Translations under genes and position numbers: made by a program
Part shown: in pieces, positions 16,534 to 61,791 of the stretch
Position numbering within the stretch: the first letter of the stretch is position 1
How the letters are laid out: each line of letters starts with the position of its first letter
Notes under the pieces: model-generated
Told to the model about the DNA's origin: nothing
Databases searched by the model: none
The model's input: the letters and a program-made list of their open reading frames with translations, nothing else
IMG/VR virus record: IMGVR_UViG_3300010399_000032
Direction: 5' to 3' (one strand)
Source of the DNA: a virus
DNA: 64,000 nucleotides

Positions 16534-16543
16534 TATCTCCAAT

Positions 16544-16573
16544 AAAAAACCGGAGGCCATAGACCTCCGGTTT
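16544..16573 (-). terminator. intrinsic terminator after DUF6745 gene
   Basis: AAACCGGAGG-N7-CCTCCGGTTT followed by T-run on minus strand. Confidence 0.8.
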
Positions 16574-16606
16574 CGGCTTGTTCCCTAGACGGACGACGGA
16601 ACCAGC

Positions 16607-17491
16607 TTACGAACAGACTTCCTCATTGAACTTCTCGGGATTAAAGCCAAATGATGCAGCGATAACCTCATGAGGAGTACTTCCTGGCATTGCACCAAGA
16701 TGGAACTTACGGCGAGTACCATCTGGTTCTAGAGTGCTATTATTGACCTCGATGATCCGCACCGGCTGGCCAGCAACCTGCATTTCAATGAGCCGGCGTG
16801 GATTACCAGCGCCATCAACGTCCTCGGAAATCACCTTGCTATTACGTTCCGAGAGATAACGGTCAAAACCATAAATCTCCAACATAATACGACGGAGCTC
16901 CGCGTTGGTTTCCTTCTCAATCACATCTGGATTGAGACGGTCCTTGTCGGTGATGATCCAGGTATTCTCATTCGGAATGGTATAACCATGCCAAGAATAG
17001 AGACCATTTCCATCAAAATACTTGATGGCCATACCATTTTCGGCATGGAGGCGACCCGCGGCATCACGGTGGAGTTCCTCAGGGCGCTCGGTGATAATCG
17101 CCAACTCATCATAAGCCCACCACCAACCAGCATTCGCAGCAATGGTCATCATGGGGTGCAACTTCTTGATTTCGGGAATATCAACCGAATCAATCTGGTC
17201 AAAGAAATCATAGAATGAAAGGAAATAGATATCGTGCTGACCATAAATCACGTTATCAAACACACCGCCAATATTCTTGTGAATATAGGCCGCCGCTGCA
17301 AACGGCGAATCAAACCACATAAACTTACCAGGAGGCGGAAGATCAGCCACCTTGTAAGCTTCATTCACGGCTTCCTCAACCAACTTTCGGTCGGAGCGCC
17401 CAGTTGCCAGCCCAATCTTGACCCACTTGTCAACGACCTTGGGCATAAGGGCAATTTCATCATCAGTGAGTTTCGTAAGCTTCTCAGCCAT
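16607..17491 (-). CDS. DUF6745-domain protein
   Basis: YGQHD..FL.FYDFF, GWWW, ERP..LHRD..GRLH...G.AI...DG..LY.WHG, E.NAELRRIMLE.YG, V.NSTLEPDGT.RKF.L. Confidence 0.8.
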   Translation of the reverse strand: MAEKLTKLTDDEIALMPKVVDKWVKIGLATGRSDRKLVEEAVNEAYKVADLPPPGKFMWFDSPFAAAAYIHKNIGGVFDNVIYGQHDIYFLSFYDFFDQIDSVDIPEIKKLHPMMTIAANAGWWWAYDELAIITERPEELHRDAAGRLHAENGMAIKYFDGNGLYSWHGYTIPNENTWIITDKDRLNPDVIEKETNAELRRIMLEIYGFDRYLSERNSKVISEDVDGAGNPRRLIEMQVAGQPVRIIEVNNSTLEPDGTRRKFHLGAMPGSTPHEVIAASFGFNPEKFNEEVCS

Positions 17492-19736: not shown

Positions 19737-19767
19737 GGCATATCCTTTTAAATGTCACAATAGGAAG

Positions 19768-19803
19768 GTAATAACGGTTGCCTCGGTTTTCAAGGCAACC
19801 GGG
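19768..19803 (-). promoter_or_regulatory. inverted repeat with possible promoter upstream of AAA gene
   Basis: GGTTGCCTTG-AAAAC-CGAGGCAACC dyad; TTGAAA-N17-TACCTT. Confidence 0.4.
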
Positions 19804-19805
19804 TT

Positions 19806-47571: not shown

Positions 47572-48315
47572 TTAGCCTACAAGGAATTGTGGTGGTTCTT
47601 GGAAGGAAGATCGAATGTCATCTTCAATTTCCTTAATCTCATCAATGGCTTCATTATAAATTTGTTGCCCATTCATGGATACTCCACCTGGAAGGACCAT
47701 TCCCTCGAACTTTTTCATGTTGGTGCCCCATTGCTTCTTAATATAAGCAGTGGCCAATCTTTTGAGCATTCGGTCGTTATAAACCGAGGTATATGTATCT
47801 GCATTAATTTCTGAGAAACCTTCAATAACGATCCAGGTTCCGGCCGGTACTCTGGTAGCCCATTCCCAGTCAATATAAAGAATATGAGTGTGCTTATTGA
47901 AGCGAATAGGAACGTCACCGATGAATAACATATCTAACGTAGCCAAGTGCTGCATAATGATTTCATATCCAACATAGGAAGTAGATGTGAAGGTTGGAAG
48001 GTCATTAAGTCGAATTTGATAATTGATATCGAACATATTTCCGATATTATTATTCTGGGATTGTCGGAAAATACGGGTCACCCCAATGTAATCTCCCGGG
48101 ATAGTTATATATTTGTTAGTAATATCAACGGCTTGGACCTGATACGGAATATAATTCCTTTCGGTTCCTTCAAAATTAAATTCACGGAAAAACTGAAAAG
48201 CCTGGTCTATTTGATCATCGACCTGATCATCATCTACGTTGATTTCAACAACTGGGAAACCTAGTTGTCTAAGGCACCAATTCTTTAAATCACTTCTACT
48301 TGCTGGTGTTGACAT
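47572..48315 (-). CDS. gp13: neck protein gp13
   Basis: CLR.LG.PV.EINVDDDQ, K.QWG.N..KF.G..LPGGV..NG. Confidence 0.95.
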   Translation of the reverse strand: MSTPASRSDLKNWCLRQLGFPVVEINVDDDQVDDQIDQAFQFFREFNFEGTERNYIPYQVQAVDITNKYITIPGDYIGVTRIFRQSQNNNIGNMFDINYQIRLNDLPTFTSTSYVGYEIIMQHLATLDMLFIGDVPIRFNKHTHILYIDWEWATRVPAGTWIVIEGFSEINADTYTSVYNDRMLKRLATAYIKKQWGTNMKKFEGMVLPGGVSMNGQQIYNEAIDEIKEIEDDIRSSFQEPPQFLVG

Positions 48316-48739
48316 TTTGCTTCCTGGTTAAAAATTTCTCGAAACTTATTGCATCTGATTTTCCAATCTGGAAGGTCCGAATAAACATAAAGAATGTCAG
48401 AGATATAAAGAAATTAACATTCAGAACTCGGCACGCTTCATAAAAAATACCATCAAAGATTAATTTGTTGACGGTGGGGTATGTTTCATATAGATAATCA
48501 TGTATAACGGCCGCTTTCGCCCATGGACCATCCGGTCGGAAAATATAATTGAATGGTTTAGGAATAGATGCAAAATCTGTTATAAACCCCACTGGTACTG
48601 TAACTACATCAAACGGTGAATCTAGGTCTCCAATATTATACGTAAAACTTTCGGTCACCCTATAGAGTGGTAGATTAAATCCGCTGCCGGATGTTTTTCC
48701 TGTGGGTTCATAGGCCAAGGGGGTCGTAAAACTCGACAT
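48296..48739 (-). CDS. DUF1353-family protein
   Basis: VPVGFITDFASIP, AAVIHDYLY, D.IF.EA...L.V. Confidence 0.85.
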   Translation of the reverse strand: MSSFTTPLAYEPTGKTSGSGFNLPLYRVTESFTYNIGDLDSPFDVVTVPVGFITDFASIPKPFNYIFRPDGPWAKAAVIHDYLYETYPTVNKLIFDGIFYEACRVLNVNFFISLTFFMFIRTFQIGKSDAISFEKFLTRKQNVNTSK

Positions 48740-49215
48740 TATTTGTAATCCTTGGCGGTCATCCACATATTGGCCAAATTCTCCGTAGGAATATTTAGCA
48801 TACTCATGAGTAATTGTGTCTCAGGATGCTCCCAATGTATGACTGTGGAATAATTCCACCATACCGTAGCTTCCTGTTGGAGTTCCGCACTAGGTAATTT
48901 GCTGATAACATTAGCTACATCTGTCATAGCCACATTGTTTCGGACTAATCCTAGACGTAATTGACTAGGAGTAAGAGGAAAATCTGCCGGACCTAAAGTC
49001 TTATATGTCCAAATTTTCTGAGCTATTCCATTAGCCGAATCAATATTATATGAAAATGTATCGATCACCTGGTTTGAATTGATGGTTGGCCGAATCTCCT
49101 GGAGAGGCATGGTGGTTCCATCAGGAACATTAATGGTTACACTACCAAGGTCCTCATCCCCGATAATTACTCCGGAGGTATTCAATATAGCGATTTTTCC
49201 AGTAATTTTGGCCAT
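48739..49215 (-). CDS. hypothetical, tail-fibre-associated
   Basis: LTPSQLRLGL, A.VWW.YS....EHP motif typical of fibre-adjacent proteins. Confidence 0.55.
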   Translation of the reverse strand: MAKITGKIAILNTSGVIIGDEDLGSVTINVPDGTTMPLQEIRPTINSNQVIDTFSYNIDSANGIAQKIWTYKTLGPADFPLTPSQLRLGLVRNNVAMTDVANVISKLPSAELQQEATVWWNYSTVIHWEHPETQLLMSMLNIPTENLANMWMTAKDYK

Positions 49216-49649
49216 TATTGTTTTCCGTAAATTGTTTTGATGGCTTTCATGGTATTAGCCATAGAGATAAATTCATTCGAATTTACCCCTTTAAAGATGG
49301 CATCTAATTGATCAGCTATGGATGGATACGTCTTTAATCGTTTGATATAATAATCTTCATCATCCGGGCGAACAATATCATTCTTAGTTAATGTGTGTGT
49401 GGTATTTGATCCATCGAACCTGGTAATAACTTGAATAGGATTAGTATTTGCCCAGATAGCTTCTTTTGCATCAATTTGAGCTTGGATGTTATCGGATCGA
49501 CTGTTTATGTAGGTCATTAAATCCACATTAGGTGGAACAAAGACTTTCCATGGATATGTGTTTGCATTATATGTTATATCAACATATGCAAGGGTTCTAA
49601 TCCCATCAGGTGATCCTGTGATACCGGTTAGATTAATTGTAATAGCCAT
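49215..49649 (-). CDS. hypothetical, tail-fibre assembly-like
   Basis: Y...R...YPSI.DQLDAI.K ... I..IK..Y.K motif. Confidence 0.6.
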   Translation of the reverse strand: MAITINLTGITGSPDGIRTLAYVDITYNANTYPWKVFVPPNVDLMTYINSRSDNIQAQIDAKEAIWANTNPIQVITRFDGSNTTHTLTKNDIVRPDDEDYYIKRLKTYPSIADQLDAIFKGVNSNEFISMANTMKAIKTIYGKQ

Positions 49650-51004
49650 TAATCTTGTTCCTTATTTGGTTTAATTGCTACTAATCTGAAATTGATGCCT
49701 GGATGTATACCATGTGGTTTTTCAGTAACAACCTTGAACCCCTCCTCCTCCAGATGCTTACCGAGTGTTTCGGCCGACCAGCCCCATAGGTGAGCCGAAT
49801 AAGTTCCCTCCTTAAGTGTTTCAGGAGTAACATTATTGGCCGAGATACCATAGATTGCTGTTAGATATGTTCCTGGATCATCATCGATGTGTCGGGCCAT
49901 TTCTAGTACATCCGGGCATTCAATAATAAGTTTTCCTCCTGGTTTCAAGGCTTTGAACCAACTTTTTGTAACATCCAGAACCTGGAGGTTGAGTAAATGT
50001 TCCAAGATATGTGATGCTAGGATTTCATCTACTGAATTTTCAGGAAGTTTTATTGTTGTGATATCTTCATGGAAATCAGCTTCGGGTGATGTTTTATCTA
50101 TTGCAAAATACCCTTCAAGTTTGTCCCTTCCACTACCCATGTTGAGTTTAACCGGGAGACCCTTGCTGTTATTTTCTTGAATTTTTCCTGATAAACTATA
50201 TGATCCTTCAGGAACTCTACTCAACCAACGCTCATCCATAAATTTCTTGTCTTTAAGGGTCATGCGGGTTGTTGGTTTGATATTGGTGTAATAATCGTTA
50301 AGGTCCACTCCTTCCCATGCCGTGTATTTTCCTGTGGCGAGGTCCATATGGAGACATTGAACGGAGGTATCAACTAGAAGTTTTATTCCATGTTTGTGAA
50401 TACGATGAACAAAAAAATTATCTTCTCCCACGAAAGGAAAACCATGCTGTTCACTAGCCACACATGCCCAAGGAATATCTGGTTCTTGCTCTTGTATTTC
50501 GCGTAATAAATCCAATGGAATTAACATGCAATCCATACCAGTTTGCCAGGCTTCAATGATTTTCCTTGGTTCTGGAGAAATATCAGGAATTTTGATGATA
50601 TTGTTTTCTCGCACCATGATCATGGCATTAGACATTTTCATATAATAAACACCAGTCACGATTGACCTGGGATTAGCTTCTGCCGTTTGGCGTAACTTGT
50701 CAAAGGCGTCCCAAGGAACAACCGTATCTTCCCCAATAAAAAACATATATTTGGCTTCGGGAACAGACAAGCAAGCATCAATTAGATAGTTTCGTGCCAC
50801 ATCTACTTTTTCCCCACCAATATCAACGTAACCATGGGAATATCCCATCAAATCTACATGAGTCAACCCATGCCCTTTAAAGGATTGGGCTGGAATTTCT
50901 GCCAAATTTCTCCTAGGTTGAGCAATAATGACATATGGTGCAATAGTTTCTGATTCGGCTTTAATTTCTCTTAAGGTATCGAAAATTTTCTCTTTAGAAT
51001 ACAT
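49649..51004 (-). CDS. glycosyltransferase-like / class I methyltransferase fusion
   Basis: VARN, FFIGED, TGVYY.K, GMDCMLI, GEDNFF (GT-A); LNMGSG, SHILEHL, LKPGGKLIIECPD (MTase). Confidence 0.8.
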   Translation of the reverse strand: MYSKEKIFDTLREIKAESETIAPYVIIAQPRRNLAEIPAQSFKGHGLTHVDLMGYSHGYVDIGGEKVDVARNYLIDACLSVPEAKYMFFIGEDTVVPWDAFDKLRQTAEANPRSIVTGVYYMKMSNAMIMVRENNIIKIPDISPEPRKIIEAWQTGMDCMLIPLDLLREIQEQEPDIPWACVASEQHGFPFVGEDNFFVHRIHKHGIKLLVDTSVQCLHMDLATGKYTAWEGVDLNDYYTNIKPTTRMTLKDKKFMDERWLSRVPEGSYSLSGKIQENNSKGLPVKLNMGSGRDKLEGYFAIDKTSPEADFHEDITTIKLPENSVDEILASHILEHLLNLQVLDVTKSWFKALKPGGKLIIECPDVLEMARHIDDDPGTYLTAIYGISANNVTPETLKEGTYSAHLWGWSAETLGKHLEEEGFKVVTEKPHGIHPGINFRLVAIKPNKEQD

Positions 51005-51011
51005 GATGTTC

Positions 51012-52142
51012 TCACAGTTTATTGAAAAATGGATGTAGTGCGACCATATTTAGGTTCATACCAGAATATGTAGTAATTTTTTGACCCACCGATGCAGACA
51101 GCGGAACAAAATGAATATCTCCATTTGGAGCTAGAATCCCGCCTGCGTAAGCACTAGACGCAGTATAAATCAGAGAATAAGTGGATACAATTCCGGTCGC
51201 CGAAATTTTTTGTCCTCTATTTCCTGATAATTTGACGAAGTGGATGTCACCATTCGGAGATAGGACTCCTCCTAGATACGCATTAGACGCAGTGTAAACC
51301 AGCGAGTATGTAGAGACGACTCCGGCAACCGAGATCTTCTGTCCTACAGTCGCGGTTCTGGGAACAAAATGAATATCTCCATTTGGAGCTAGAACTCCAC
51401 CACCATATTCAACAGCAGCATTTGTATAGATCAATGAATAGGTTGAGACTACACCCGCAGAGGATATTTTTTGCCCAACGATTGCTGCCAAAGGTACAAA
51501 ATGGATATCCCCATTTGGAGCTAGAACTCCACCTTGATATGCATTAAATGTAGTGTAAACCAGAGAATATGTGGATACCACACCGGAGGATGAGATTTTT
51601 TGTCCAACATTGGCTTGAGAGGGAACAAAATGAATATCTCCATTTGGAGATAGGACTCCTCCAGAATATCCACCAATAACAGTATAAACCAATGAGTATG
51701 TCGAAACAACTCCCGAAGAAGAAATTTTTTGACCTACAGCACCGTAAGGCACAAAGTGGATATCACCATTTGGAGCTAGAACTCCACCGGATGATGCACC
51801 CAAAGAGCTTGTATAGATCAGGGAATAGGTGAACGCCACCCCTGAAGCTGATATTTTTTGGCCAACAGTAGTTTGATATGGAACAAAATGGATATCACCA
51901 TTTGGAGCTAGAACTCCACCTTGATATGCATTAGATGTTGTGTAGACCAAAGAATATGTAGAAACTACCGTCTTATTGAAAAGTTGCCCCGCTGCTTGTG
52001 TTTCTGCTAAGAGGTTTTTGAAATTATTCCAGGCCGATAGGGTTGTATCCAAAGTACTAGAATCTGCCGTTGGAATTACCCATTGGAGGGTGTTGGCTAC
52101 TTCTGTCTTGAAATGTGGATTTATTTTGTTCGTATTTGTCAT
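51012..52142 (-). CDS. 7-repeat beta-propeller protein (paralogue C)
   Basis: 7 x VVSTYSLVYT..AY.GGVLAPNGDIHFVP....VGQKIS..G; ends HPFFNKL. Confidence 0.8.
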   Translation of the reverse strand: MTNTNKINPHFKTEVANTLQWVIPTADSSTLDTTLSAWNNFKNLLAETQAAGQLFNKTVVSTYSLVYTTSNAYQGGVLAPNGDIHFVPYQTTVGQKISASGVAFTYSLIYTSSLGASSGGVLAPNGDIHFVPYGAVGQKISSSGVVSTYSLVYTVIGGYSGGVLSPNGDIHFVPSQANVGQKISSSGVVSTYSLVYTTFNAYQGGVLAPNGDIHFVPLAAIVGQKISSAGVVSTYSLIYTNAAVEYGGGVLAPNGDIHFVPRTATVGQKISVAGVVSTYSLVYTASNAYLGGVLSPNGDIHFVKLSGNRGQKISATGIVSTYSLIYTASSAYAGGILAPNGDIHFVPLSASVGQKITTYSGMNLNMVALHPFFNKL

Positions 52143-53152
52143 TATAATTTATTTAACCATGGTGATGAAATAACTCCAAAATCTAGTGGTACGGCCGGTA
52201 GGGTTGAAATTTTTTGCCCTACAGAAGCAGTATCCGGAATGAAGTGGATATCACCATTTGGAGATAGGACTCCACCTGCATATGCACTTGCAGTTGTATA
52301 AACTAAGGAATAGGTTGAAACCACTCCGTTGATATCTATTTTTTGCCCAACGGGCGCGTTCGTCGGAATGAAGTGGATATCACCATTTGGAGATAGGACT
52401 CCACCTGCATATGCACTATTAATATCGGTATAAACTAAGGAATAGGTTGAAACCACTCCGTTGATATCTATTTTTTGCCCAACGGGCGCGTTCGCCGGAA
52501 TGAAGTGGATATCTCCATTGGGGGCCAAAACACCACCAAAATATGCACCATTAATATCGGTATAAACTAAGGAATAGGTTGAAACCACTCCGTTGATATC
52601 TATTTTTTGACCAACTGTAGCTGCATATGGACCGAAGTGGATATCTCCATTTTGTGATAGAACCCCACCAGCATATGCGGTAAAGGATGTATAAATCAAG
52701 GAATAAGTAGAGACGACTCCTGATGCTGATATTTTTTGGCCGACTGTGGCAAGAAACGGAGCGAAGTGTATATTCCCGTTCGGATCTAGAGTACCACCCA
52801 AATAGGCTTCTGTAATTATGGAATAGGTAGAAACCGCTCCGTTGATATTTATTTTTTGCCCAACCGTTGCTGAATATGGAACGAAGTGAATATCCCCGTT
52901 TGGAGCCAGAACACCACCAACATGTGCGCCATTAATATTGGTATAAATCAAGGAATAAGTAGAAACCACTGCCTGTTCCGCGGCATTGAATAATTGCCCC
53001 GGTACAGAACTTTTCCTTAATAGATATTGGAATGCCGTAAAGGCTGCTAAATCGGTTCCAATAGATGAATTATCGGCCGTTGGAAGGATACCTCGACCAA
53101 CAGTTTGTACATTTGATAGCCATGATGGGCTAATTTTGAAAACATCTGTCAT
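52142..53152 (-). CDS. 6-repeat beta-propeller protein (paralogue B)
   Basis: 6 copies of same repeat; ends SPWLNKL. Confidence 0.8.
   Translation of the reverse strand: MTDVFKISPSWLSNVQTVGRGILPTADNSSIGTDLAAFTAFQYLLRKSSVPGQLFNAAEQAVVSTYSLIYTNINGAHVGGVLAPNGDIHFVPYSATVGQKININGAVSTYSIITEAYLGGTLDPNGNIHFAPFLATVGQKISASGVVSTYSLIYTSFTAYAGGVLSQNGDIHFGPYAATVGQKIDINGVVSTYSLVYTDINGAYFGGVLAPNGDIHFIPANAPVGQKIDINGVVSTYSLVYTDINSAYAGGVLSPNGDIHFIPTNAPVGQKIDINGVVSTYSLVYTTASAYAGGVLSPNGDIHFIPDTASVGQKISTLPAVPLDFGVISSPWLNKL
52240..52610. repeat. near-identical 132-bp tandem blade repeats
   Basis: gtataaactaaggaataggttgaaaccactccgttgatatctattttttg at 52296, 52428, 52560. Confidence 0.9.
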
Positions 53153-54279
53153 AGCTTATTTAACCATGGTGAACAAAGTGTACCAATTCCGAATGGAAGT
53201 GCTGATGTGGTGGAGATTTTTTGCCCAACTGTAGCAGAATATGGAATAAGGTAAATGTCTCCGGCCGCCGTCAATATTCCTCCAAAAAATGCCGAAGAAG
53301 TAGTATAAACCAATGAATAGGTTGAAACTACACCAGATGAACTTATTTTTTGGCCAACTTTTGCAGAATATGGAACAAAATGGATGTCGCCGTTCGGGGC
53401 TAGAACTCCTCCAGCATATGCTCCAACAGATGTTGTATAAACTAAGGAATATGTGGATATTACTCCTGCAACCGATATTTTTCGACCAATTGAAGCACTA
53501 TACGGAATGAAGTGAATGTCGCCGTTCGGGGCTAGAACTATTCCAGTATAATTTGATCCTCCAAGAGTGTATGTGGAAACAACGCCGGCCGCCGATATCT
53601 TCTGCCCGAATAATGCATTAAAAGGAGAGAAATAAATGTCCCCATTAGGGGCTAGAACTCCTCCTCTATAAGCAATTGTAGTGGTATAAACTAAGGAATA
53701 TGTGGATACTATTCCGGCTGCGGATATCTTTTGACCTACTTTTGCACTACACGGAATAAAGTGAATGTCCCCGTTAGGAGCTATGACACCACCATCATAC
53801 GCATCTCCAGAGTTGGTGGTATAAGCCAAGGAATATGTGGATATTACTCCGTTGATATCTATTTTTTGACCGACAGCGGCCGTCGCCGGAACGAAATGTA
53901 TGTCCCCGTTAGGAGCCAGGACTCCTCCTCTATATCCTCCTGCTGTAGTATATACCAGTGAATAAGTTGAAACCGACCCATTTGCTGATATTTTTTGGCC
54001 GTTGGCAGCCCCATATGGAACGAAATGTATGTCCCCGTTAGGAGCCAGGACTCCTCCTGTATAAGCAGTACTAGGCTTATAAACTAGTGAATATGTTGAA
54101 ACTATTGTGGTAGAGTAGATAGAGGCCGCGGTGTTGCTCTTTTGTAAAAGATCGGAAAAACCATACCAAGCTTTTAAATCTGTTCCAATACCTCCATCGT
54201 TACCCGGTGGTAAAATACCATCGGTAGTTTCAAGTACATCTTGTTGCCATTGAACGGAAATAATATCTGTGTTAGCCAT
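53149..54279 (-). CDS. 7-repeat beta-propeller protein (paralogue A)
   Basis: 7 copies of same repeat; ends SPWLNKL. Confidence 0.8.
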   Translation of the reverse strand: MANTDIISVQWQQDVLETTDGILPPGNDGGIGTDLKAWYGFSDLLQKSNTAASIYSTTIVSTYSLVYKPSTAYTGGVLAPNGDIHFVPYGAANGQKISANGSVSTYSLVYTTAGGYRGGVLAPNGDIHFVPATAAVGQKIDINGVISTYSLAYTTNSGDAYDGGVIAPNGDIHFIPCSAKVGQKISAAGIVSTYSLVYTTTIAYRGGVLAPNGDIYFSPFNALFGQKISAAGVVSTYTLGGSNYTGIVLAPNGDIHFIPYSASIGRKISVAGVISTYSLVYTTSVGAYAGGVLAPNGDIHFVPYSAKVGQKISSSGVVSTYSLVYTTSSAFFGGILTAAGDIYLIPYSATVGQKISTTSALPFGIGTLCSPWLNKL

Positions 54280-54280
54280 A

Positions 54281-57200
54281 TTATGTGCCTATGACAGTTG
54301 CAGTATATTGATTTGCTGTGGGGGCTGAAACGAATACCAAATTAGCTGAATTTGCTGTAACATAAAGAATATCCGGATAGACCAAATAACCACTAGCCCA
54401 TTCTCTCACTGAAATGAAAATATTATTTGCAAAACTCAAATTGTGGGTAAGGGTGTAAGTTGTACTTGAACCATCGCCTACGTTTGCGGTATAAGAACTA
54501 AATGATCCACCTCCACCACTTGCGGTACTTGCAATGGTGACGGAATCATTGATCGTATCAGGCGTTAGAGTAATATTTGAACCGGCAATGAGAGTAAGAT
54601 TTGCAGATGGACCATTGGCAATAACTAATGTACCTGCAACATTTATTGCTCCAAAATCATTAGCTGTTGCCGCAGAATTGGCTTTGGCATATGCACCTTG
54701 AGCCGTTATCAAAACGTTATTTGATGATAGGTATGCATTATTCGCCAACACATAAGCAGCATTGGCCTGACCATATGCCGATCCTGCGGTTGTATTATCC
54801 GCATTGGCTTTCGTGAATGCGCCCTGTGCTGTAACTAATACGGTATTGGCGAAGTTATAGGCATTATTACCCTGAGTGTAAGCTAGATTTGCCTCGGCAA
54901 ATGCACCTTGTGCCGTAACCAATACGGTATTTGAGGAATTATATGCGTTGTTTCCTTGGGTGTAAGCCAAATTAGCTTCTGCATATGCTGACCTGGCCGT
55001 GATGTTATCGGCATTGGCTTGGGCAAATGCACCTTGAGCCGTTATCAAAACTGAGTTGGATGAAATATAAGCGTTGTTGGCAAGAATATATGCGGCATTG
55101 GCCTGACCATATGCCGATCCTGCGGTTGTATTATCCGCATTGGCTTTCGTGAATGCGCCCTGTGCTGTAACCAATACAGTGTTTGATGAGTTATAGGCAT
55201 TATTACCCTGAGTATATGCCAGGTTAGCTTCCGCAAATGCACCTTGAGCCGTTACGAGAACCGTATTAGCTTGACCGTATGCGGCATTGGCTTGATTATA
55301 GGCTGAATTGGCTTGGGTATATACCGTAGAAATCCAAACAACGTTGGCTCCTCGCATGAGATACCAGGTATTGGTTGAATTGGCATAGAATTGGACGGTT
55401 TCTCCCTGATACAACGTAATAGCCGTATTAGCGACCTGATTCTCGATTGAACCAAAAATTTGAGGATAAACCGACAAATCCAAGGTCGTTTCATTTTTTA
55501 TTGCAATTCGGGACCAAGTATTTGCAACAGGAAGGATTAATCCTGTATTACCTGTATTTGCCGTCCGGATTTCCTGGAAACTATGATTTCCTGAAACTGG
55601 GCGGGCCGTTGCTTGGGTTGAACCATTTGCTGAAACAGATACTACCAAAGTTGCCAATGGCATAGCTGTATTTGCAATCAAGGAAACGGCATTAACTTCT
55701 GCAAATGCCGCTTGGGCGGTAATATTTGAGTTATTTGCCTGATCATATGCGGTATTAGCTTGTACATAAGCAGCATTTGCCTGATTAAAGGCTGCATTAG
55801 CTTGGTTATATGCACTGGTAACACCTGAACCACCGGCCGAATTTGCCGTGGCATAAGCGCTTTGAGCCGTTGCAAGGGCCAAGTTAGCTTCCGTATATGC
55901 TGATCCAACAGTGATATTATCATTGTTGGCCATAAGATACGCAGATTGCGCGGTGATTAAGACCGTATTCGACGCATTATATGCGTTGTTTCCTTGGCTA
56001 TAGGCCAGATTTGCCTCGGCAAATGCTCCCTGTGCTGTGACAAGAACCGTATTGGATGAATTGTAGGCATTATTTCCTTGGCTGTAGGCTAGGTTAGCTT
56101 CCGAAAAAGCTCCTTGTGCTGTAACCAATACGGTATTAGCAAAATTGTAAGCATTGTTGCCTTGAGTATATGCCAGGTTAGCTTCTGCATAGGCCGCTCG
56201 GGCAGTAATATTAGAATTGTTGGCTTGGGTAAAGGCCCCCTGAGCCGTAACCAATACGGTATTTGAGGAATTATATGCGTTGTTTCCTTGGCTATAGGCC
56301 AGATTTGCCTCAGCGAAGGCGCCTTGCGCCGTTAAGAGAACCGTATTAGATGAATTGTAGGCATCATTTGCATGAGTATATGCTGTATTGGCTTCAAGGA
56401 AAGCTCCTTGAGCCGTCACTAGAACCGTATTGGATGAGAGATAGGCATTATTGGCCAGAACGTAGGCCGCATTAGCTTCTATATAAGCACCGACGGCCGT
56501 AATGTTTACAGAGTTCGCATAAGCCCAAGCAGTATTGGCCTCAAGGAAGGCACCTTGAGCCGTTATCAAAACGTTATTTGATGATAGGTATGCATTATTC
56601 GCCAACACATAAGCAGCATTGGCTTGACCATAAGAAGACCCGGCTGTTGTGTTGGCGGACTGTGCCAAAGATTCGGCTGCATTGGCTTGTGAATAAGCTG
56701 AGACCACCGTGATATTATCGGCATTGGCTTGGGCAAATGCACCTTGTGCCGTAACCAGTACGGTATTTGAGGAATTGTAGGCATTATTGGCATGAATATA
56801 AGCAGCATTGGCTTCATCATAGGCCGGTACTACATTAATTGTATTGGCATAATCATACGCATTATTGGCTAAAACGTAGGCCGAGTTAGCTTCGGTAAAT
56901 GCGCCCTGAGCCGTTATCAATACGGTATTGGCCCAGTTATAGGCATTGTTACCTTGGATGTATGCGGAATTTGCCTCAGAAAAAGCCGATCCAACAGTTA
57001 CATTAACGGAATTTGCGTAGGTCCAAGCAGTATTGGCCTCAAGGAAAGCCCCCTGAGCGGTTATCAGTACCGTATTTGAGGAATTATAAGCATTATTGGC
57101 CAAATCGTAAGCAGCATTCGCTTCTGTATAAGCCGAAATTACTGTTATATTAGCATTATTAGCCAAATCATATGCTGAGTTTGCTTCAATATATGCTGAA

Positions 57201-57586
57201 ATTGCCGTGATGTTTGCTGCATTAGCCTGAGCGAAAGCCGCATAAAGGCTAGTATTATCGGTGTTAGCTTGAGCTAATGCTTGGGTGGCAATGGAATTTG
57301 CAGTATTGGCCTGGTCGTATGCTGAACCTGCCGTTATGTTTACATTATTGGCCTGGTCGTATGCTGACCCGGCTATGGTATTAGCTGAATTAGCTAAATC
57401 CCATGCGGTGTTAGCTTCCACATATGCGGATTGTGACGTAATATTGACAGAATTGGCCTCACCGAAAGCTGCCTGAGCCGTCGTGAGTGCTAATTGACCT
57501 GTTACAGAATCAGATGATTGAATTGTTGGGACGCCGGCTCGAATTTGTCTCTGGCCGATGGAAACTTTAGTTGTTATGTTTCCCAT
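54281..57586 (-). CDS. long Ala/Asn-rich heptad-repeat fibre protein
   Basis: A-x-x-x-A-N-x heptads, 28-aa unit AQGAFAEANLAYSQGNNAYNSSNTVLVT; globular insert; C-term GDGSSTTYTLTHNL domain. Confidence 0.75.
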   Translation of the reverse strand: MGNITTKVSIGQRQIRAGVPTIQSSDSVTGQLALTTAQAAFGEANSVNITSQSAYVEANTAWDLANSANTIAGSAYDQANNVNITAGSAYDQANTANSIATQALAQANTDNTSLYAAFAQANAANITAISAYIEANSAYDLANNANITVISAYTEANAAYDLANNAYNSSNTVLITAQGAFLEANTAWTYANSVNVTVGSAFSEANSAYIQGNNAYNWANTVLITAQGAFTEANSAYVLANNAYDYANTINVVPAYDEANAAYIHANNAYNSSNTVLVTAQGAFAQANADNITVVSAYSQANAAESLAQSANTTAGSSYGQANAAYVLANNAYLSSNNVLITAQGAFLEANTAWAYANSVNITAVGAYIEANAAYVLANNAYLSSNTVLVTAQGAFLEANTAYTHANDAYNSSNTVLLTAQGAFAEANLAYSQGNNAYNSSNTVLVTAQGAFTQANNSNITARAAYAEANLAYTQGNNAYNFANTVLVTAQGAFSEANLAYSQGNNAYNSSNTVLVTAQGAFAEANLAYSQGNNAYNASNTVLITAQSAYLMANNDNITVGSAYTEANLALATAQSAYATANSAGGSGVTSAYNQANAAFNQANAAYVQANTAYDQANNSNITAQAAFAEVNAVSLIANTAMPLATLVVSVSANGSTQATARPVSGNHSFQEIRTANTGNTGLILPVANTWSRIAIKNETTLDLSVYPQIFGSIENQVANTAITLYQGETVQFYANSTNTWYLMRGANVVWISTVYTQANSAYNQANAAYGQANTVLVTAQGAFAEANLAYTQGNNAYNSSNTVLVTAQGAFTKANADNTTAGSAYGQANAAYILANNAYISSNSVLITAQGAFAQANADNITARSAYAEANLAYTQGNNAYNSSNTVLVTAQGAFAEANLAYTQGNNAYNFANTVLVTAQGAFTKANADNTTAGSAYGQANAAYVLANNAYLSSNNVLITAQGAYAKANSAATANDFGAINVAGTLVIANGPSANLTLIAGSNITLTPDTINDSVTIASTASGGGGSFSSYTANVGDGSSTTYTLTHNLSFANNIFISVREWASGYLVYPDILYVTANSANLVFVSAPTANQYTATVIGT

Positions 57587-57924
57587 TACCTAGTGACTCC
57601 TGCATTAACGGTAATTGTACCTTCCAGAACCCTTGTAACATTTCCGCTAGGAGAAGTGGTTATAACATCGAAAAGGTATCTTTGTGGGAGGATATTGAGA
57701 GAATTTGCCGCGGACATAGATAAGGAAATAATACCGTTAGGACCATCCGTAACAGTACAAATAAGATTCGCTGAAATGTTAGATGAGTAAAATGATCGCT
57801 TTAATTGTGATTGTGCCGTGTACCCAACCACATTAATTGCGGTATTGGTTGTATCATCTGTTAAGGTAAGCGTATCATTCCAATCTGAACCTTGGTCGAT
57901 AAAAAGATCAATATAGTCTGCCAT
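57586..57924 (-). CDS. small virion structural protein (Ig-like)
   Basis: L.IDQG.D, GYTA.SQL.., RYLFDV.......TRVLEG.ITV..GVT. Confidence 0.7.
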   Translation of the reverse strand: MADYIDLFIDQGSDWNDTLTLTDDTTNTAINVVGYTAQSQLKRSFYSSNISANLICTVTDGPNGIISLSMSAANSLNILPQRYLFDVITTSPSGNVTRVLEGTITVNAGVTR

Positions 57925-57945: not shown

Positions 57946-57952
57946 TATTTAG
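57946..57952 (-). promoter_or_regulatory. late promoter for fibre/propeller operon
   Basis: CTAAATA 22 nt upstream of ATG. Confidence 0.7.
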
Positions 57953-57954
57953 GT

Positions 57955-58926
57955 TTAACCAATATTTTTCACTAAGGTAACAAGGACTCTAGGATTTGTA
58001 TTGGCATCAATGAACGTGTAATAAAAAAGCACGTCCGTAGCACCGGCGGTAGATGATAGATTAGCCGTTAATTTGTTAGGGAAAACGTAATTATTTTCAT
58101 AGGTCATGGAAGCTCCACCACCAGCGGGTTGGGTAAAACGTCGTGATCCTGAAACACCAGATTTGAAATTTGTTGGATTTTTGAGTAGGATATTACCACC
58201 CAGGATTAAACTATCATTAAGAGTTGTGCTCATATCAAAAGCTACGTTTCCAGATATACCGGCACCTGTGTTGGCCTCGGCGGCCGCTGCCCAAATACCA
58301 GATATTTCTGCTACTCGACCTACATTATTCGCTTTAAATTGACTTCCTGTTGCCCAGATGGTAGCACCATTTTGAGTGGCTGATCCTAAGGTATTGGCCT
58401 GGGCATAAGCCGCCTGGGCTGTAATATTGGCACTATTAGCTAAAGCATATGCTGAGTTGGCTTCCGCGAAAGCTCCTTGGGCTGTTCCGGATACTGATGT
58501 TACCGAAGCTGTTGTTGCCGCGGCATTAGCACCAGCGAAAGCTCCTTGGGCAGTAGTAAGTGCGGTGTTAGCATCTACATATGCCGCATTAGCTTGGTTA
58601 TATGCAGTATTCGCTTGCCCATAAACAATGGAAATTTGAGAATTTGCACCATTCCAGACGGATTGTGCATAATTATAAATTTGACTGGTTACATTCGAAG
58701 AAGACAAATTTATCGCGGAATTATCAGTTATAACCTGGGAAGGAGTAATGGTTATGTAAGTAGTTCCAAATTTTGCCTGTGATCCATTGACAACCAAAGG
58801 AGCACTATTAGAAATCAGATTAAGCACATTGGCCGCGTCCAATGCATTAGACCACGCCAATTGTTGGTTAACCCGGGTTAACCAAGTAAAAAATGTATCT
58901 CCAACTGATACGTTAGCGAACGCCAT
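57955..58926 (-). CDS. short fibre-like virion protein
   Basis: DTF..W....N N-term, A-x-x-x-A-N heptads, C-term Q...G...LS....A.DVL.YY tip domain. Confidence 0.65.
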   Translation of the reverse strand: MAFANVSVGDTFFTWLTRVNQQLAWSNALDAANVLNLISNSAPLVVNGSQAKFGTTYITITPSQVITDNSAINLSSSNVTSQIYNYAQSVWNGANSQISIVYGQANTAYNQANAAYVDANTALTTAQGAFAGANAAATTASVTSVSGTAQGAFAEANSAYALANSANITAQAAYAQANTLGSATQNGATIWATGSQFKANNVGRVAEISGIWAAAAEANTGAGISGNVAFDMSTTLNDSLILGGNILLKNPTNFKSGVSGSRRFTQPAGGGASMTYENNYVFPNKLTANLSSTAGATDVLFYYTFIDANTNPRVLVTLVKNIG

Positions 58927-59143
58927 TTATTAATCCTTCTAGTAGAGCCTTAATATCTTTGAGGTCGTGTTCTATGGTATTTACCTTTTCGGCCAATTCC
59001 TCATTTTGTGATTTGGCTTCCGTAGCTATTTCAGCTATTCTTTTTTTGCTTCTATATTCAGTAATTTTGCGTTTATCGGTTTCAACTAGCCCTAGACTAT
59101 GTGAATCGCGCATCATCGTGGTATCTTTAACTTTAATGAGCAT
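58913..59143 (-). CDS. small coiled-coil hypothetical virion-associated protein
   Basis: RD..S.GLV.TD......Y, L.DIK.LL..L. Confidence 0.65.
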   Translation of the reverse strand: MLIKVKDTTMMRDSHSLGLVETDKRKITEYRSKKRIAEIATEAKSQNEELAEKVNTIEHDLKDIKALLEGLINGVR

Positions 59144-61779
59144 TATAGTGGTAGTGCAATGGCTCTTAGGTTATAAAGAACTGGGACATGGGTAGTGTCA
59201 CTCGAAACTAATACAACCTTTAGAGCAAATGTGTTGAAATAGGTATATGTAGCTGATCCTGAGGTATAAGTGATACCTGTCTGCCCACCGGCCGTATCCA
59301 CCATATCATATTCAAATTCAATGGCATCATTTTCAAATGATCCCTCGGTAGATACTCCTTGGGTACCAATTGAGCGATTCATGAGGACCCATGGTTTACG
59401 AGAAAATGGATCAGGATCAGTTGCAGCTTTGATCTTATAATAAACCAAAATATCAGTGTTATTTGGTCGGTATGCTGTTAGGAAAACTTTTAGATCATTA
59501 GCATCGAAACCATCCGCTAAGGTGACTGCTCGGCTGATATATTTAGATTCGGCTGGCCCACCTGAGAAAGCTGTTTCGGAAGCAATAGAAATAACTCCGG
59601 TATTGGATCCTACAGAAACAGATACATTATCCGTATATCCGGAACCACCCGCGGCCAACTGAATTGAAGTCAGGTAACCACTTGAATTGGCATTACCATA
59701 AGCTTTTGCCCCAGAACCTGCTGTGGAGGTTATGGTCAAAGGAATATTAGCATTTGCAGGGAAACCGGCTAATGCAGTCGCAATGGTGAAATCCGATTGT
59801 GCCAAATTAGCATTATCAATATAATTCTGGAATGAAATAAATTGACCTGTACTTGGATAAATCACAGGAGAAATTGCAGTATCCCCAGTACTCATTGTTA
59901 TTACCAAATCATATGGTGATGTGGTTGAATTCAAGAGAACACGGCTATCTGGAATGATTTCATTATCGAGTTTATAGGCTTCCAATGTCTGCCCGGGGAA
60001 TGAATGCTGGTATGATAGTGAGGTATTACCATAAATTTGCCCATTGAGGTGGGTTAGGAATTTATCCACCACAATATCTGAACCATTTGCGGCTGGCAGA
60101 TTTGAAGATAGTTGAACTGTTCCTGAGGTTGCAAACTGAGCTTGATAGATATTAAAGGTCATGACCTCGGTTTGGATGGCATCCCAGGTATAATCATTCT
60201 TTGATTTGAATAAGCTACCTGAATATGGTGAGGCTGAAACAATTCTATTTGTTCCTAGGATGGTACCACCAAGTTCGGCTACGAAAACTTCATATTCCAA
60301 ACTGTCAGATGAAACGACGAGTGCGTAATCGCCTGGAGGAAGATAAACAGGTGTTGCGAATTTGAAATTGGTTGGAATAGATGCATCATCCGAAATATTG
60401 ACATTTTCCGAAAGTTTTACGGAAACACTTAATGGAACCACTGAGATAGATGATGGATATCCATTCACCATTGGGCGAATATCAACCGTTACTGGTAAGA
60501 TATTGTCCTTTGATCGGAAGAAAATGTCCAATGAAGTTAGGAACATTGCCGATGTTACATAGAATTGTTGAGCAATTGGGTCCCAACCTGGATCAGATTG
60601 ACCAACACCAAATGATCCACCACCTTTTCCACTTGAACTTGAGGTTGCAGGTGGGGTTGATGGTGTTGGGGTTGGTGTAACAACAGGAGTTATGGATTGA
60701 ACGGAAGAAACCGATGTTGATTGCATAACAATCGAATCTTTAGTTTCTTGGATACCAGTTGCGTCAAACTTATAATCTGCATAAGTTGTTGCAGAAGATG
60801 TATCATTGGATGGATCATCAATAATACGGAAAATTCTTTCACCAGTACGGAACATACCGGCAGGAATATTAAAGATACCTGAAATTTGACCTTCATCATC
60901 CGTATAGAATGTTTGACCAATAGAGAAACTGATATCTCCGGCCGGGGTGAAAATCGAAACTGGGTCGGAAATAGAAGCAGAAACTAAGTTTGCCAATGTT
61001 CCTTGTGCAGAAGACAAGGTAAGTGTCCTAGTGACATTATTAAATCCAACAATATTAGCTGTTAATGGTGGGTGAGCCAGTTTTTTACCTGGAACAAAGG
61101 TGATGGTATTTGAACCATCCGTGCCCCAAAAATTATTGGCCATAGCAACGCTTCGGATAGGAAGTTGCACGGTGTTAGCGGTATTTGATGAGAACCATGA
61201 TGCAAGATTACCACCACCGCGGGTTTCATAATATTCAATAGTTCCGGTGTTGCCGCTGCTATGTAGTGTAAGTGTCTGCCCTGGTAGGAACCGACCATTA
61301 ATCTGAGCTCCATTGTATAGATGGAACTTTCTCTTACGATCCCGACTATCACCAGTATCTTGGAGAGTCGTATTGGCATTTCCTGTATCAAAATATCGGC
61401 CATAAGCCAGAACAGGAGCAATATTATCTGATCCAGCACCCGCAGTTACAATATCAGCATTGGCGGAGAACCCAACGGTTGAAATATGCAAAACATTGGT
61501 GTTGTCTTGCATCCTGAGATAATCGGATTTGATGATATAGTCTGTTACATCCTGACCATCAAAATTGAACCAGACGCGACGATTTGGGCGAAGCCCGCGC
61601 GCAATGAATGAAACTTGACGGTTAGGAATATAAGGAATAATAGAAATGTCAATAACACCGTTATCATACTGACTAGTTGTTACCGTAGTTGTTGTTTTGG
61701 TGGTAACAATAGCAGATGGTGAGGTAGTAGTTGACGTACTAACCGAGGTTTGTTTAGTAGTGGTTAAACCTGTTGACAT
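59143..61779 (-). CDS. large virion structural protein (C-terminal DUF4815/VrlC-like part)
   Basis: GLRPN.R..F.FDG, F.TGERIFR, DPIAQ.F, F.TS.DIFF..KD...PV, GSLFKS.N..TW, KYISR.VTL. Confidence 0.75.
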   Translation of the reverse strand: MSTGLTTTKQTSVSTSTTTSPSAIVTTKTTTTVTTSQYDNGVIDISIIPYIPNRQVSFIARGLRPNRRVWFNFDGQDVTDYIIKSDYLRMQDNTNVLHISTVGFSANADIVTAGAGSDNIAPVLAYGRYFDTGNANTTLQDTGDSRDRKRKFHLYNGAQINGRFLPGQTLTLHSSGNTGTIEYYETRGGGNLASWFSSNTANTVQLPIRSVAMANNFWGTDGSNTITFVPGKKLAHPPLTANIVGFNNVTRTLTLSSAQGTLANLVSASISDPVSIFTPAGDISFSIGQTFYTDDEGQISGIFNIPAGMFRTGERIFRIIDDPSNDTSSATTYADYKFDATGIQETKDSIVMQSTSVSSVQSITPVVTPTPTPSTPPATSSSSGKGGGSFGVGQSDPGWDPIAQQFYVTSAMFLTSLDIFFRSKDNILPVTVDIRPMVNGYPSSISVVPLSVSVKLSENVNISDDASIPTNFKFATPVYLPPGDYALVVSSDSLEYEVFVAELGGTILGTNRIVSASPYSGSLFKSKNDYTWDAIQTEVMTFNIYQAQFATSGTVQLSSNLPAANGSDIVVDKFLTHLNGQIYGNTSLSYQHSFPGQTLEAYKLDNEIIPDSRVLLNSTTSPYDLVITMSTGDTAISPVIYPSTGQFISFQNYIDNANLAQSDFTIATALAGFPANANIPLTITSTAGSGAKAYGNANSSGYLTSIQLAAGGSGYTDNVSVSVGSNTGVISIASETAFSGGPAESKYISRAVTLADGFDANDLKVFLTAYRPNNTDILVYYKIKAATDPDPFSRKPWVLMNRSIGTQGVSTEGSFENDAIEFEYDMVDTAGGQTGITYTSGSATYTYFNTFALKVVLVSSDTTHVPVLYNLRAIALPL

Positions 61780-61791
61780 TTATTATCCTTG

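Follow-up and report, generated by a model that had tools for sequence, protein, structure and literature searches.

The DNA described here, from an uncultured T4-like phage, encodes, within its late genes, a compact, sharply defined and widespread cassette that unites the end of a long fibre, three paralogous β-propellers, a glycosyltransferase (GT) often fused to a methyltransferase (MT), and a 144-residue partner protein. We propose, with a probability of about one half, that the comparative sequence data describe a mobile fibre-tip adhesin module whose late-made enzyme pair would add a (methylated) sugar to part of the virion. In the abundant uncultured phages of water and soil, no part is less well understood than host recognition. 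The cassette is unusual in having a fixed set of three adhesin paralogues, each with docking ends specific to its position, a designed-looking invariant propeller frame with hypervariable loops, and an obligate pair of enzymes whose predicted product is a methylated sugar.

Organization of the Gene Run

Within the 64,000-nt stretch of DNA analyzed here (the window), gene calls place abutting genes without a break on the minus strand from 57924 to 49215, in the order LtfC-like collar, 1101-residue fibre, three propellers, GT-A glycosyltransferase/SAM methyltransferase fusion (GT-MT), and 144-residue protein (Table 1). Neighboring genes overlap by 1-4 nt or are separated by 1-7 nt, and every gene of the uninterrupted late run that had been proposed from the sequence was recovered in place on this strand. 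The unbroken run goes on downstream with DUF1353, gp13, gp14, gp15, gp16 and gp17. Two genes between the conserved block and gp13, the 158-residue gene and the DUF1353 gene (PF07087, E 6e-19; phrog_1158, E 2e-30, a PHROG labelled tail assembly chaperone), were considered as members of the cassette and ruled out, as neither has a relative in 77 related loci. The original prediction had also described the last two genes of its run as fibre-assembly-like, a label that found no support: the 144-residue protein is a conserved companion of the GT and the 158-residue protein falls outside the conserved cassette. A search for tRNAs and other RNA features found none.

Table 1. Genes and promoter-like motifs of the cassette region, with the evidence for each assignment.
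Feature	Coordinates	Strand	Basis
LtfC-like β-sandwich protein, 112 aa (candidate collar)	57586-57924	-	phrog_1084, phrog_3304
Segmented coiled-coil fibre, 1101 aa	54281-57586	-	tail-fibre PHROGs
Propeller paralogue 1, 376 aa, 7 blades	53149-54279	-	blade count, AF2 model
Propeller paralogue 2 (propB), 336 aa, 6 blades	52142-53152	-	blade count
Propeller paralogue 3, 376 aa, 7 blades	51012-52142	-	blade count, position-3 signatures
GT-A glycosyltransferase/class I SAM methyltransferase fusion, 451 aa	49649-51004	-	PHROG, Pfam, AF2
144-aa putative GT partner	49215-49649	-	conserved beside GT
158-aa protein	48739-49215	-	PHROGs of unknown function only
DUF1353 protein	48296-48766	-	PF07087, phrog_1158
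CTAAATA late-promoter-like motif	57946-57952	-	22 nt before LtfC-like start codon
Second CTAAATA motif	51047-51053	-	43 nt before GT-MT start, within end of propeller 3

The run had been assigned to one late promoter at its head. A CTAAATA motif is present at that site, and two more copies occur inside the run, one before the GT-MT gene and one 26 nt before DUF1353, so that a single promoter is not established. CTAAATA as such is not enriched in the window (13 copies vs. 14 expected by chance), yet 12 of the 13 lie on the coding strand, and nine of those 12 precede a start codon, among them those of gp23 and gp18, by 22-59 nt. Beyond the window, 14 of 52 distinct loci carry the related motif [CTA]TAAATA in the 100 nt before the GT gene, vs. 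3.5% of background 100-nt windows, an eight-fold enrichment. The T4 late promoter TATAAATA was considered and rejected (four copies vs. seven expected, none in the region), and sigma-70-like sites and terminators occur at or below chance frequency.

The fibre gene contains 84-nt tandem repeats, and its product comprises 28-residue super-repeats, an internal β domain, and a conserved C-terminal domain of ~70 residues, with matches to tail-fibre PHROGs (e.g. phrog_13173, E 2e-25). Because the gene holds the position of wac (fibritin) in T4, a neck-whisker rather than a tail-fibre location may apply. The 112-residue protein encoded before it matches phrog_1084 (E 1e-23) and phrog_3304, "L-shaped tail fiber protein assembly" (E 7e-17), while scoring 21.7 bits against the Pfam family LtfC (PF23926), under the cut-off of 27. 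It is a candidate collar or attachment protein of the fibre, by homology with LtfC, which in phage DT57C forms a dodecameric collar holding the lateral fibres (PMC10713586).

Conservation of the Cassette Across Uncultured Phages

The core from trio to partner recurs nearly unchanged in ~100 other uncultured phage fragments in IMG/VR, where relatives amount to ~150 propeller-bearing stretches, 118 GTs and 183 copies of the 144-residue gene. Among 45 non-redundant loci with both flanks, exactly three propeller genes are present in 40, and the GT and 144-residue genes directly follow the propellers in 43; these loci, the query's nearest relatives, are phylogenetically non-independent, and fewer independent events lie behind them than the counts suggest. 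Single fused propeller forms and four-gene loci also occur. A scan anchored on the GT likewise found three propellers upstream in 47 of 51 loci, and linkage between trio and GT-MT in other genomes, on which the original prediction had staked its case, thus holds. On these data, that trio and GT are functionally coupled is well supported.

The cassette is carried by more than one kind of phage. T4-like contigs have gp13-gp18 downstream of it, and it is also present in genomes of 56-63 kb (91-100% complete) that have no match to PF04984, the one tail-sheath family searched. One T4-like contig (L074) bears the cassette version of the other class. In the 25 short-class loci matched, the gene immediately before the trio ends in a counterpart of the last ~70 fibre residues, 39-56% identical, although its length ranges from 113 to 1745 residues. 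Moreover, the type of this upstream C-terminal domain and the type of the propeller N-terminal anchor switch together in all of ~60 loci and across backbones. Movement of the whole unit, comprising fibre end, trio, GT and partner, between unrelated phage backbones appears to be the best explanation for this distribution. Compared at the nucleotide level with 50,697 phage records, the region as a whole gave no match. A protein search turned up no more than single propellers from two Cylindrospermopsis phages, plus weak matches in Streptococcus prophages, with no cultured phage carrying the cassette.

A Trio of Propellers With Position-Specific Termini

The three propellers of the window are 60-62% identical to one another and have in common an N-terminal stretch of ~55 residues and a C-terminal P[WF][LF]NKL, confirming the trio of paralogues first noticed from the sequence. 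Propeller 3 bears the position-3 signatures, namely SP.F and L.E in the N-terminus and HPFFNKL at the end. All three are built from blades of 40-45 residues. The gene for propB contains a 132-nt tandem repeat (3.4 copies, 87% identity), and the protein is one blade short of its orthologues elsewhere, which have ~375 residues; the missing blade may be a repeat collapsed during assembly. Comparison of 889 blades from 141 proteins gave entropies of 0-1 bit at frame positions and 2.8-3.8 bits in three loop segments. The description of these propellers as hypervariable accordingly fits the three loop segments and not the near-invariant blade frame, whose conserved residues recur in every blade; in repeat alignments the register of the blades is ambiguous. 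Such a frame with variable loops may serve as a natural binder scaffold.

The AF2 model of propeller 1 has seven four-stranded blades at pLDDT ~92; confidence is lower, at pLDDT 55-66, in the C-terminal tail and in the N-terminal 58 residues, which form two helices. Its best solved match in Foldseek is the Vgb lyase 2z2n (TM 0.90, rmsd 2.4 Å over ~300 residues, 16-18% identity), and the family profile matches 2qc5 at E 1.9e-10. The window propellers score 45.7, 29.1 and 40.6 bits against PF24684, all under the 50-bit gathering threshold, and a fused relative (L076) scores 118 bits. At E<=0.001, a search of 1.84 billion representatives gave 2255 relatives for propeller 3, in which the propeller unit usually forms the C-terminal end of a longer protein: it caps a collagen-repeat protein of Hokovirus and a 1130-residue protein beside the virion structural genes of Cylindrospermopsis phage Cr-LKS4, and also matches a viral protein of 1138 residues. 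The N-domain of the long class is common to viral proteins ending in YadA_head, Peptidase_S74 or Gly_rich_2 (TM 0.95-0.98), and some propeller paralogues carry inserted ConA-like lectin domains. An N-x-S/T or DNSS motif in the flexible N-terminal linker was considered as a sugar acceptor and dropped as too inconsistent, DNSS being present in ~17-82% of proteins by class and position and missing from two of the three paralogues in the window.

A tree built from the termini only requires five changes of position label among 54 sequences, vs. at least 20 in shuffles; the whole-protein tree requires 18, vs. at least 57. By this measure the propeller termini form three position-specific lineages. 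That they covary with the upstream fibre's C-terminal domain would suit three distinct docking roles on that fibre.

The Glycosyltransferase and its Small Partner

The GT-MT enzyme comprises a GT-A glycosyltransferase (residues ~20-250) and a class I SAM methyltransferase (~280-450), with PHROG matches to both activities, a Pfam Methyltransf_11 score of 26.6 bits (cut-off 21.2), no membrane segment, and an AF2 model at pLDDT 85. In VIA the GT domain most closely resembles STIV A197 (Z 18.1, rmsd 2.7, 176/191 residues; Foldseek E 3.7e-9), followed by human ColGalT1 (Z 15.0) and mimivirus R699 (Z 14.6) at 10-12% identity; these three act or are proposed to act on proteins (PMC4187194, PMC9546862). 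The GT-A folds of TarP and RmlT, wall-teichoic-acid and rhamnose transferases, are also among the structural matches, and the MT domain (residues 281-448) matches many SAM methyltransferases at Z 13-15 in VIA. Thirty GT homologues have 60 invariant columns, including D93 and G193-E194-D195. At the candidate DxD motif the sequence reads F-I-G-E-D-T, an ExD-like variant in which G91, D93 and T94 are invariant in the same homologues. Across loci the fusion partners of the GT come from two different methyltransferase families, one being Methyltransf_24/TylF of the sugar O-methyltransferase type, and the MT domain is missing in 10 of 45 loci. The family is essentially viral: among single genomes from 185,579 prokaryote species it has three matches, all on MAG contigs.

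The 144-residue gene overlaps the GT stop codon by 1 nt and follows the GT in 43 of 45 loci; conversely, a scan anchored on this gene found a GT domain directly upstream in 59 of 62. Its product ends in a conserved motif, PDYY..R...YP...DQLDA..KG, and on this conservation appears to be an obligate partner of the GT. No Pfam family or PDB match was found for it, a search of 27 homologues against Pfam at E<=1 yielded nothing consistent, and sequence profiles of the GT-MT and the 144-residue protein had no meaningful match among all PDB chains. Assignment as XkdW or as a tail-assembly chaperone was dropped, the Atlas scores of 0.83 being sub-threshold. The pair is predicted to make a (methylated) sugar. 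In one genome (G001), the GT and 144-residue genes are found in the replication module, 40 kb from the propellers and beside a nucleotide-sugar epimerase, which indicates that propellers can be encoded without an adjacent GT and that the enzyme need not be late everywhere.

Proposed Mechanism and Alternatives

By homology, the LtfC-like protein would anchor the long coiled-coil fibre to the particle. The comparative evidence suggests that the three seven-bladed paralogues dock on the conserved C-terminal domain of this fibre, each through its own N-terminal anchor and C-terminal tail, and may together form a three-member distal head. Strand topology would place the hypervariable A-B and C-D loops on one face of each rigid, near-invariant frame, where they could contact a host surface structure, probably a glycan, making the trio the putative host-recognition part. 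The GT-A enzyme, probably complexed with its 144-residue partner and made late alongside the fibre-tip proteins, would transfer a sugar that the fused methyltransferase may then O-methylate, onto propellers, fibre or partner during assembly. Of the originally predicted receptor-binding or decoration apparatus, a modular, virion-distal, probably receptor-binding unit with trio and GT coupled is retained; its two fibre-assembly-like genes are read differently, as described above. A stricter version, with an obligatory 1:1:1 hetero-trimeric head on the fibre C-terminal domain that needs an O-methylated sugar from the GT(-MT)/144-residue pair for maturation, and that is exchanged as one unit between myoviruses and ~60-kb phages, strikes us as doubtful. 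It would be an asymmetric receptor-binding organelle whose assembly depends on glycosylation by enzymes of the phage itself.

The same gene order could arise if the GT(-MT) and its partner modified the host glycan that the propellers recognize, blocking superinfection and keeping progeny off debris; the enzymes would then travel with the adhesin genes since both must match the same receptor. Glycosyltransferases in the host-recognition clusters of pelagimyophages are read in this way (PMC7029224), TarP and RmlT are among the structural matches, and the displaced pair in G001, beside its epimerase, would agree with a sugar-nucleotide pathway and with genes expressed early or midway in infection. 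We nevertheless consider this unlikely: the enzyme has no membrane segment, nearly all loci place it within the structural run and often behind a late-type motif of its own, its nearest folds are protein-directed or virus-particle-associated GTs, and the obligate small partner is left unexplained. If the GT decorates the fibre tip, T4-like phages would join mycobacteriophages and giant viruses in having glycosylated virions, and the receptor-binding organelle itself would be a target; if it modifies the host, a receptor-masking function would be genetically tied to matching adhesins.

The trio might instead represent three receptor-binding proteins that work independently, each occupying a separate site as a monomer or homo-oligomer, much as where a phage carries several tailspikes, and that widen or layer the host range. 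Tandem paralogues with distinct N-terminal docking parts are known in DT57C LtfA/LtfB (PMC10713586). Exchange or homogenization of propeller bodies between positions (18 label changes vs. five for the termini) and the existence of single fused and four-gene forms are also in keeping with independence. Host-range paralogue sets usually differ in number, however, whereas ~90% of loci, on two unrelated backbones, have exactly three, and we hold this independent arrangement to be improbable. Far less probable still is an enzymatic role, in which the propellers would serve as a lyase, lactonase or depolymerase that breaks down a polymer on the host surface and not as binding modules. Profile and fold (TM 0.9) do make them genuine, if distant, relatives of virginiamycin/streptogramin B lyase, and the weak Streptococcus phage matches are annotated "putative hydrolase"; yet the same residues are conserved in each blade, which is how a structural repeat looks rather than a lone active site, the variable positions cluster in surface loops, and all three Pfam scores fall under the family cut-off.

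Comparison With Known Systems

Virus-encoded GTs glycosylate the capsid proteins of chloroviruses and mycobacteriophages, and virion glycosylation in mycobacteriophages was reportedly described by Freeman et al. in 2023, as cited in PMC12801897. As in such systems, the cassette GT is a soluble GT-A enzyme that the virus itself encodes, within a late/structural gene block. Its closest solved fold is STIV A197 (PMC4187194), and its fusion to a methyltransferase resembles chlorovirus PBCV-1 A064R, which comprises two GT domains and a sugar 2-O-methyltransferase (PMC7826918). Unlike A064R, A197 and the mycobacteriophage systems, the cassette GT has an obligate 144-residue partner, and it is linked to fibre-tip propellers rather than to capsid proteins; glycosylation by the cassette is a prediction. 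The second- and third-best fold matches, ColGalT1 and R699 (PMC9546862, PMC12279948), belong to collagen-modifying systems, and giant viruses (Hokovirus) also attach this propeller type to collagen-repeat proteins, but the cassette has neither collagen repeats nor a hydroxylase. Pelagimyophages and cyanomyophages are likewise T4-like and aquatic, with GTs among the tail-fibre genes upstream of gp13 (PMC7029224). The GTs described for them are GT8-type LPS enzymes in variable sets, read as host O-chain modifiers, and a fixed unit of propeller trio, GT and partner is not described there (PMC7029224).

Vgb (PF24684; PDB 2z2n, 2qc5) has the seven-bladed fold of the cassette propellers, with the blade motif in the same register. 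Vgb is a stand-alone bacterial antibiotic-resistance enzyme, whereas the cassette propellers form a fixed trio in phage structural operons and differ from it in their near-identical blade repeats, hypervariable loops and virion-anchor termini. The LtfC and LtfA/LtfB system of DT57C is similar in having a small LtfC-like gene before the fibre and several adjacent distal binding proteins (PMC10713586), and attachment through N-terminal parts is predicted for the cassette as in DT57C. Unlike in DT57C, the distal parts of the cassette are propellers, always three, with position-specific termini, and they are followed by a glycosyltransferase pair.

A conserved propeller-glycosyltransferase cassette

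Gene calling recovered, on the minus strand, every gene named by the original prediction, all at its coordinates (see table). The run is uninterrupted, as had been claimed, with neighbors overlapping by 1-4 nt or sitting no more than 7 nt apart, and it extends past 49215 into a DUF1353 gene and then gp13-gp17.

Features of the window, by gene calls, motif search and profile matches
Feature	Coordinates	Strand	Position or content
112-aa protein	57586-57924	-	first gene of run
1101-aa fiber	54281-57586	-	second gene
Paralogue 1, 376 aa	53149-54279	-	third gene; β-propeller
Paralogue 2, 336 aa	52142-53152	-	fourth gene; β-propeller
Paralogue 3, 376 aa	51012-52142	-	fifth gene; β-propeller
451-aa glycosyltransferase-methyltransferase fusion (GT-MT)	49649-51004	-	then 144-aa (49215-49649) and 158-aa (48739-49215) proteins
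CTAAATA motif	57946-57952		before first gene
Tandem repeat in paralogue 2	52235-52678		132-nt period
β-rich fiber domain	55300-55700		fiber residues ~640-760
323-aa protein	57955-58926		just upstream of promoter-like motif
878-aa and 719-aa proteins	59143-63951		phrog_358 matches
CobS-like ATPase and large peptidase-like protein	18531-22130		phrog_249, phrog_459
T4-type core, part 1 (PHROG profiles)			gp13-position head-tail adaptor, gp14-position head closure protein, gp15 sheath stabilizer, small and large terminase, gp18 sheath, gp20 portal
T4-type core, part 2			further along window: gp23 major head protein, scaffold, gp46/47, helicase, clamp loader

To examine conservation, IMG/VR was scanned with paralogue 1, which gave 152 confirmed stretches; 77 loci were retained and all window proteins were mapped onto them. 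Nearly all loci uncut by a contig end share one gene order: three propellers, the glycosyltransferase (GT), and the 144-aa gene. Exactly three propeller genes are present in 40 of the 45 non-redundant loci having sequence on both sides (in three more, a split third gene adds a fragment to the three), and the GT and 144-aa gene lie directly downstream in 43. A GT-anchored scan found three propellers upstream in 47/51 loci, while anchoring on the 144-aa gene placed the GT directly upstream in 59/62, the remaining three being a fused 270-aa form. The propeller-GT linkage expected by the original prediction thus recurs in other genomes. At one locus (L004) no enzyme accompanies the trio. On that contig, GT-MT sits 40 kb away, together with the 144-aa gene, in the replication module behind clamp-loader genes (L080:9700-11540; both loci belong to genome G001), with a nucleotide-sugar epimerase, dUTPase and Hsp20 downstream. 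From the three-way anchored counts and this joint displacement, the GT and 144-aa gene are an obligate pair, almost always tied to the trio. Elsewhere in L080, a 300-aa protein adjoining the sliding-clamp gene (16083-16985) matches phrog_1574 (E 8e-64), a family of unknown function that the cassette GT domain also matches weakly; possibly, this is a GT-like paralogue widespread among T4-like phages.

Among prokaryotes, sampled as one genome per species across 185,579 species, only three such loci were found, all on MAG contigs; the cassette family is essentially viral. The longest of the three again carries the trio and GT. L219, a 256.7-kb contig assigned to a Lentimicrobiaceae MAG, has an additional propeller gene 5 kb downstream of its trio and GT; it probably represents a large phage that was placed in a bacterial bin.

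The window itself derives from an uncultured, divergent T4-like myovirus, given its T4-type core, a portal only ~52% identical to those of its best cultured relatives (T4-like cyanophages), and the lack of any match in a nucleotide search against 50,697 phage records. Every long gene lies on the minus strand. The 878-aa and 719-aa proteins match separate parts of phrog_358 (2056 positions, function unknown) and look like a giant structural protein in split form. The region of the CobS-like and peptidase-like genes has raised G+C (0.45-0.47, vs ~0.40 elsewhere).

Late-type motifs within the run

The run had been assigned to one late promoter. The motif concerned, CTAAATA, lies 22 nt before the first gene. 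Its total count in the window is not above chance; of its 13 copies, 12 are on the coding strand, nine of these preceding a start codon by 22-59 nt (those of gp23 and gp18 included). By its placement, CTAAATA behaves like a late-type element. Two more copies fall within the run, preceding GT-MT by 43 nt and DUF1353 by 26 nt, and in 14 of 52 related loci [CTA]TAAATA occurs in the 100 nt before the GT gene, vs 3.5% of background windows. That a single promoter serves all these genes is thus not established, and the GT-MT enzyme is plausibly expressed late.

Propellers with a constant frame and variable loops

The three paralogues share 60-62% pairwise identity and, as predicted, have the N-terminal ~55 residues and a terminal P[WF][LF]NKL in common. 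Between these ends lie repeats of 40-45 aa, numbering 7, 6 and 7; the 20 blades have a mean mutual identity of 68%. Entropy across 889 blades from 141 related proteins is 0-1 bit at frame positions and 2.8-3.8 bits in three loop segments, located before GG, after FVP and, more weakly, after QKI. The description of these propellers as hypervariable thus fits the loops but not the entire proteins. The blades are also tandem repeats in DNA, with a 129-nt period at 68% identity in paralogue 3, and 3.4 copies of a 132-nt repeat at 87% identity in paralogue 2. The latter has six blades vs seven in its orthologues, which could reflect recent blade duplication or deletion or, as it is one blade short, a repeat collapsed in assembly.

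Paralogue 1, modeled from a 47-sequence alignment, is predicted to be a seven-bladed propeller (pLDDT ~92). Its first 58 residues, forming two helices, and last ~15 residues have pLDDT 55-66, as expected of parts requiring a partner. Of solved structures, virginiamycin B lyase matches best (TM 0.90, rmsd 2.4 Å), a kinship also seen by sequence profile (E 1.9e-10), with the window propellers below the Pfam cut-off. A catalytic role is unlikely for the propellers, because the same conserved residues recur in every blade. Compared with predicted viral structures, the propeller has its best named match in a Hokovirus collagen-repeat protein, followed by an unnamed 1138-aa viral protein. In Cylindrospermopsis phage Cr-LKS4, the propeller is the end of a 1130-aa protein adjoining annotated virion structural proteins. 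An exhaustive search of 1.84 billion representatives returned, at E≤0.001, 2255 relatives; most of the long ones have the propeller unit at their C-terminal end, beginning at about residue 20 of the query.

Three positional lineages

In a whole-protein tree of 139 sequences, the position label (first, second or third gene) changes 18 times vs at least 57 in shuffles, and in the long class of propellers (~460 aa) each position is nearly a clade. For the short class (~375 aa, the window type), a tree of 54 sequences built from the termini only (N-terminal ~58 residues plus C-terminal tail) requires 5 changes vs at least 20 in shuffles. By eye, third paralogues can be told apart by SP.F and L[DN]E signatures in place of the SP.W and L.[KR]S of the other two, a rule to which the window conforms. 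The fewer changes for the termini, together with these position-specific signatures, suggest that the termini have been kept distinct while the blades were partly homogenized, a pattern that fits three non-interchangeable docking roles.

Fiber ends and propeller anchors co-vary

The 112-aa protein matches phrog_3304, "L-shaped tail fiber protein assembly" (E 7e-17), and its match to Pfam LtfC is below threshold. In phage DT57C, lateral fibers insert into LtfC, which forms a dodecameric collar (PMC10713586). The adjacent 1101-aa fiber has tail-fiber PHROG matches and forms a segmented coiled coil in which units of 84 nt (28 aa) repeat. A β-rich domain of ~120 aa interrupts the coiled coil; its residue pattern resembles the C-terminal domain of long-class fibers, and BLAST with this domain gave no significant match. 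The 323-aa protein shares AYxQANxA coiled-coil repeats with the 1101-aa fiber and had no match in PHROG or Pfam; it may be a second, shorter fiber.

Short-class propellers occur in T4-like contigs in which gp13-gp18 follow the cassette. Long-class propellers have an additional ~95-residue N-terminal domain and reside in 56-63-kb genomes (91-100% complete by CheckV, one with terminal repeats), none of which has a match to sheath family PF04984. Predicted structures show this N-domain (TM 0.95-0.98) in viral proteins with YadA-head, Peptidase_S74 or glycine-rich distal parts, suggesting a general fiber anchor with exchangeable ends. ConA-like lectin domains or glycine-rich domains are inserted in some propeller paralogues. 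Immediately upstream of the trio lies a gene of 113 to 1745 aa that, whatever its length, always closes with a class-specific ~70-aa domain. One T4-like contig, L074, pairs a long-class fiber end with long-class anchors, so fiber end and anchors move as one unit. Of the available evidence for propeller docking on the fiber C-terminal domain, this co-movement is the best.

A glycosyltransferase with a variable methyltransferase half

GT-MT is modeled as two domains (pLDDT 85). Residues ~22-250 comprise a GT-A glycosyltransferase, whose nearest solved structures are STIV A197 (Z 18.1), a candidate enzyme for glycosylating the STIV capsid (PMC4187194), human ColGalT1 (Z 15.0), and mimivirus R699 (Z 14.6), a collagen glucosyltransferase (PMC9546862). 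Residues ~280-450 comprise a class I SAM methyltransferase, with Pfam Methyltransf_11 above threshold. Across 30 homologues the GT domain stays constant (60 invariant columns). The C-terminal half varies, being Methyltransf_11 in 28 loci, Methyltransf_24/TylF (a different family, of the macrocin sugar O-methyltransferase type) in 5, and absent in 10. At one locus, a separate GT2-methyltransferase fusion gene (L070:15536-16801) lies 3.5 kb downstream of a GT-only cassette enzyme. Two independent fusions of GTs to methyltransferases argue that the methyl group would go onto the transferred sugar. Chlorovirus PBCV-1 A064R (GT-GT-MT) likewise combines both activities, building and 2-O-methylating the rhamnose that caps the capsid glycan (PMC7826918).

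Proposed role

We propose that the unit would form a fiber-tip host-recognition module of collar, fiber, three-member propeller head and co-made enzyme pair. The propellers are likely distal, virion-borne adhesins (probability roughly 0.75), with variable loops predicted by strand topology to lie on one face. The trio may act either as a single heteromeric head or as three separate adhesins. As to the target of the GT(-MT) enzyme, our favored reading, held tentatively, is a virion component, to which late-operon placement, late-type motifs, nearest folds and viral precedents all point. Modification of a host surface glycan, the interpretation put on the GTs of pelagimyophage host-recognition clusters (PMC7029224), is favored by the displaced GT-MT and 144-aa pair of G001; we regard it as a genuine but less likely alternative.

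The cassette is real and conserved, and its chemistry and stoichiometry are what we infer. Within the literature that could be searched, it has not been described. It is not a new category, belonging to two known kinds of system: modular phage adhesin sets and virus-encoded glycosylation.
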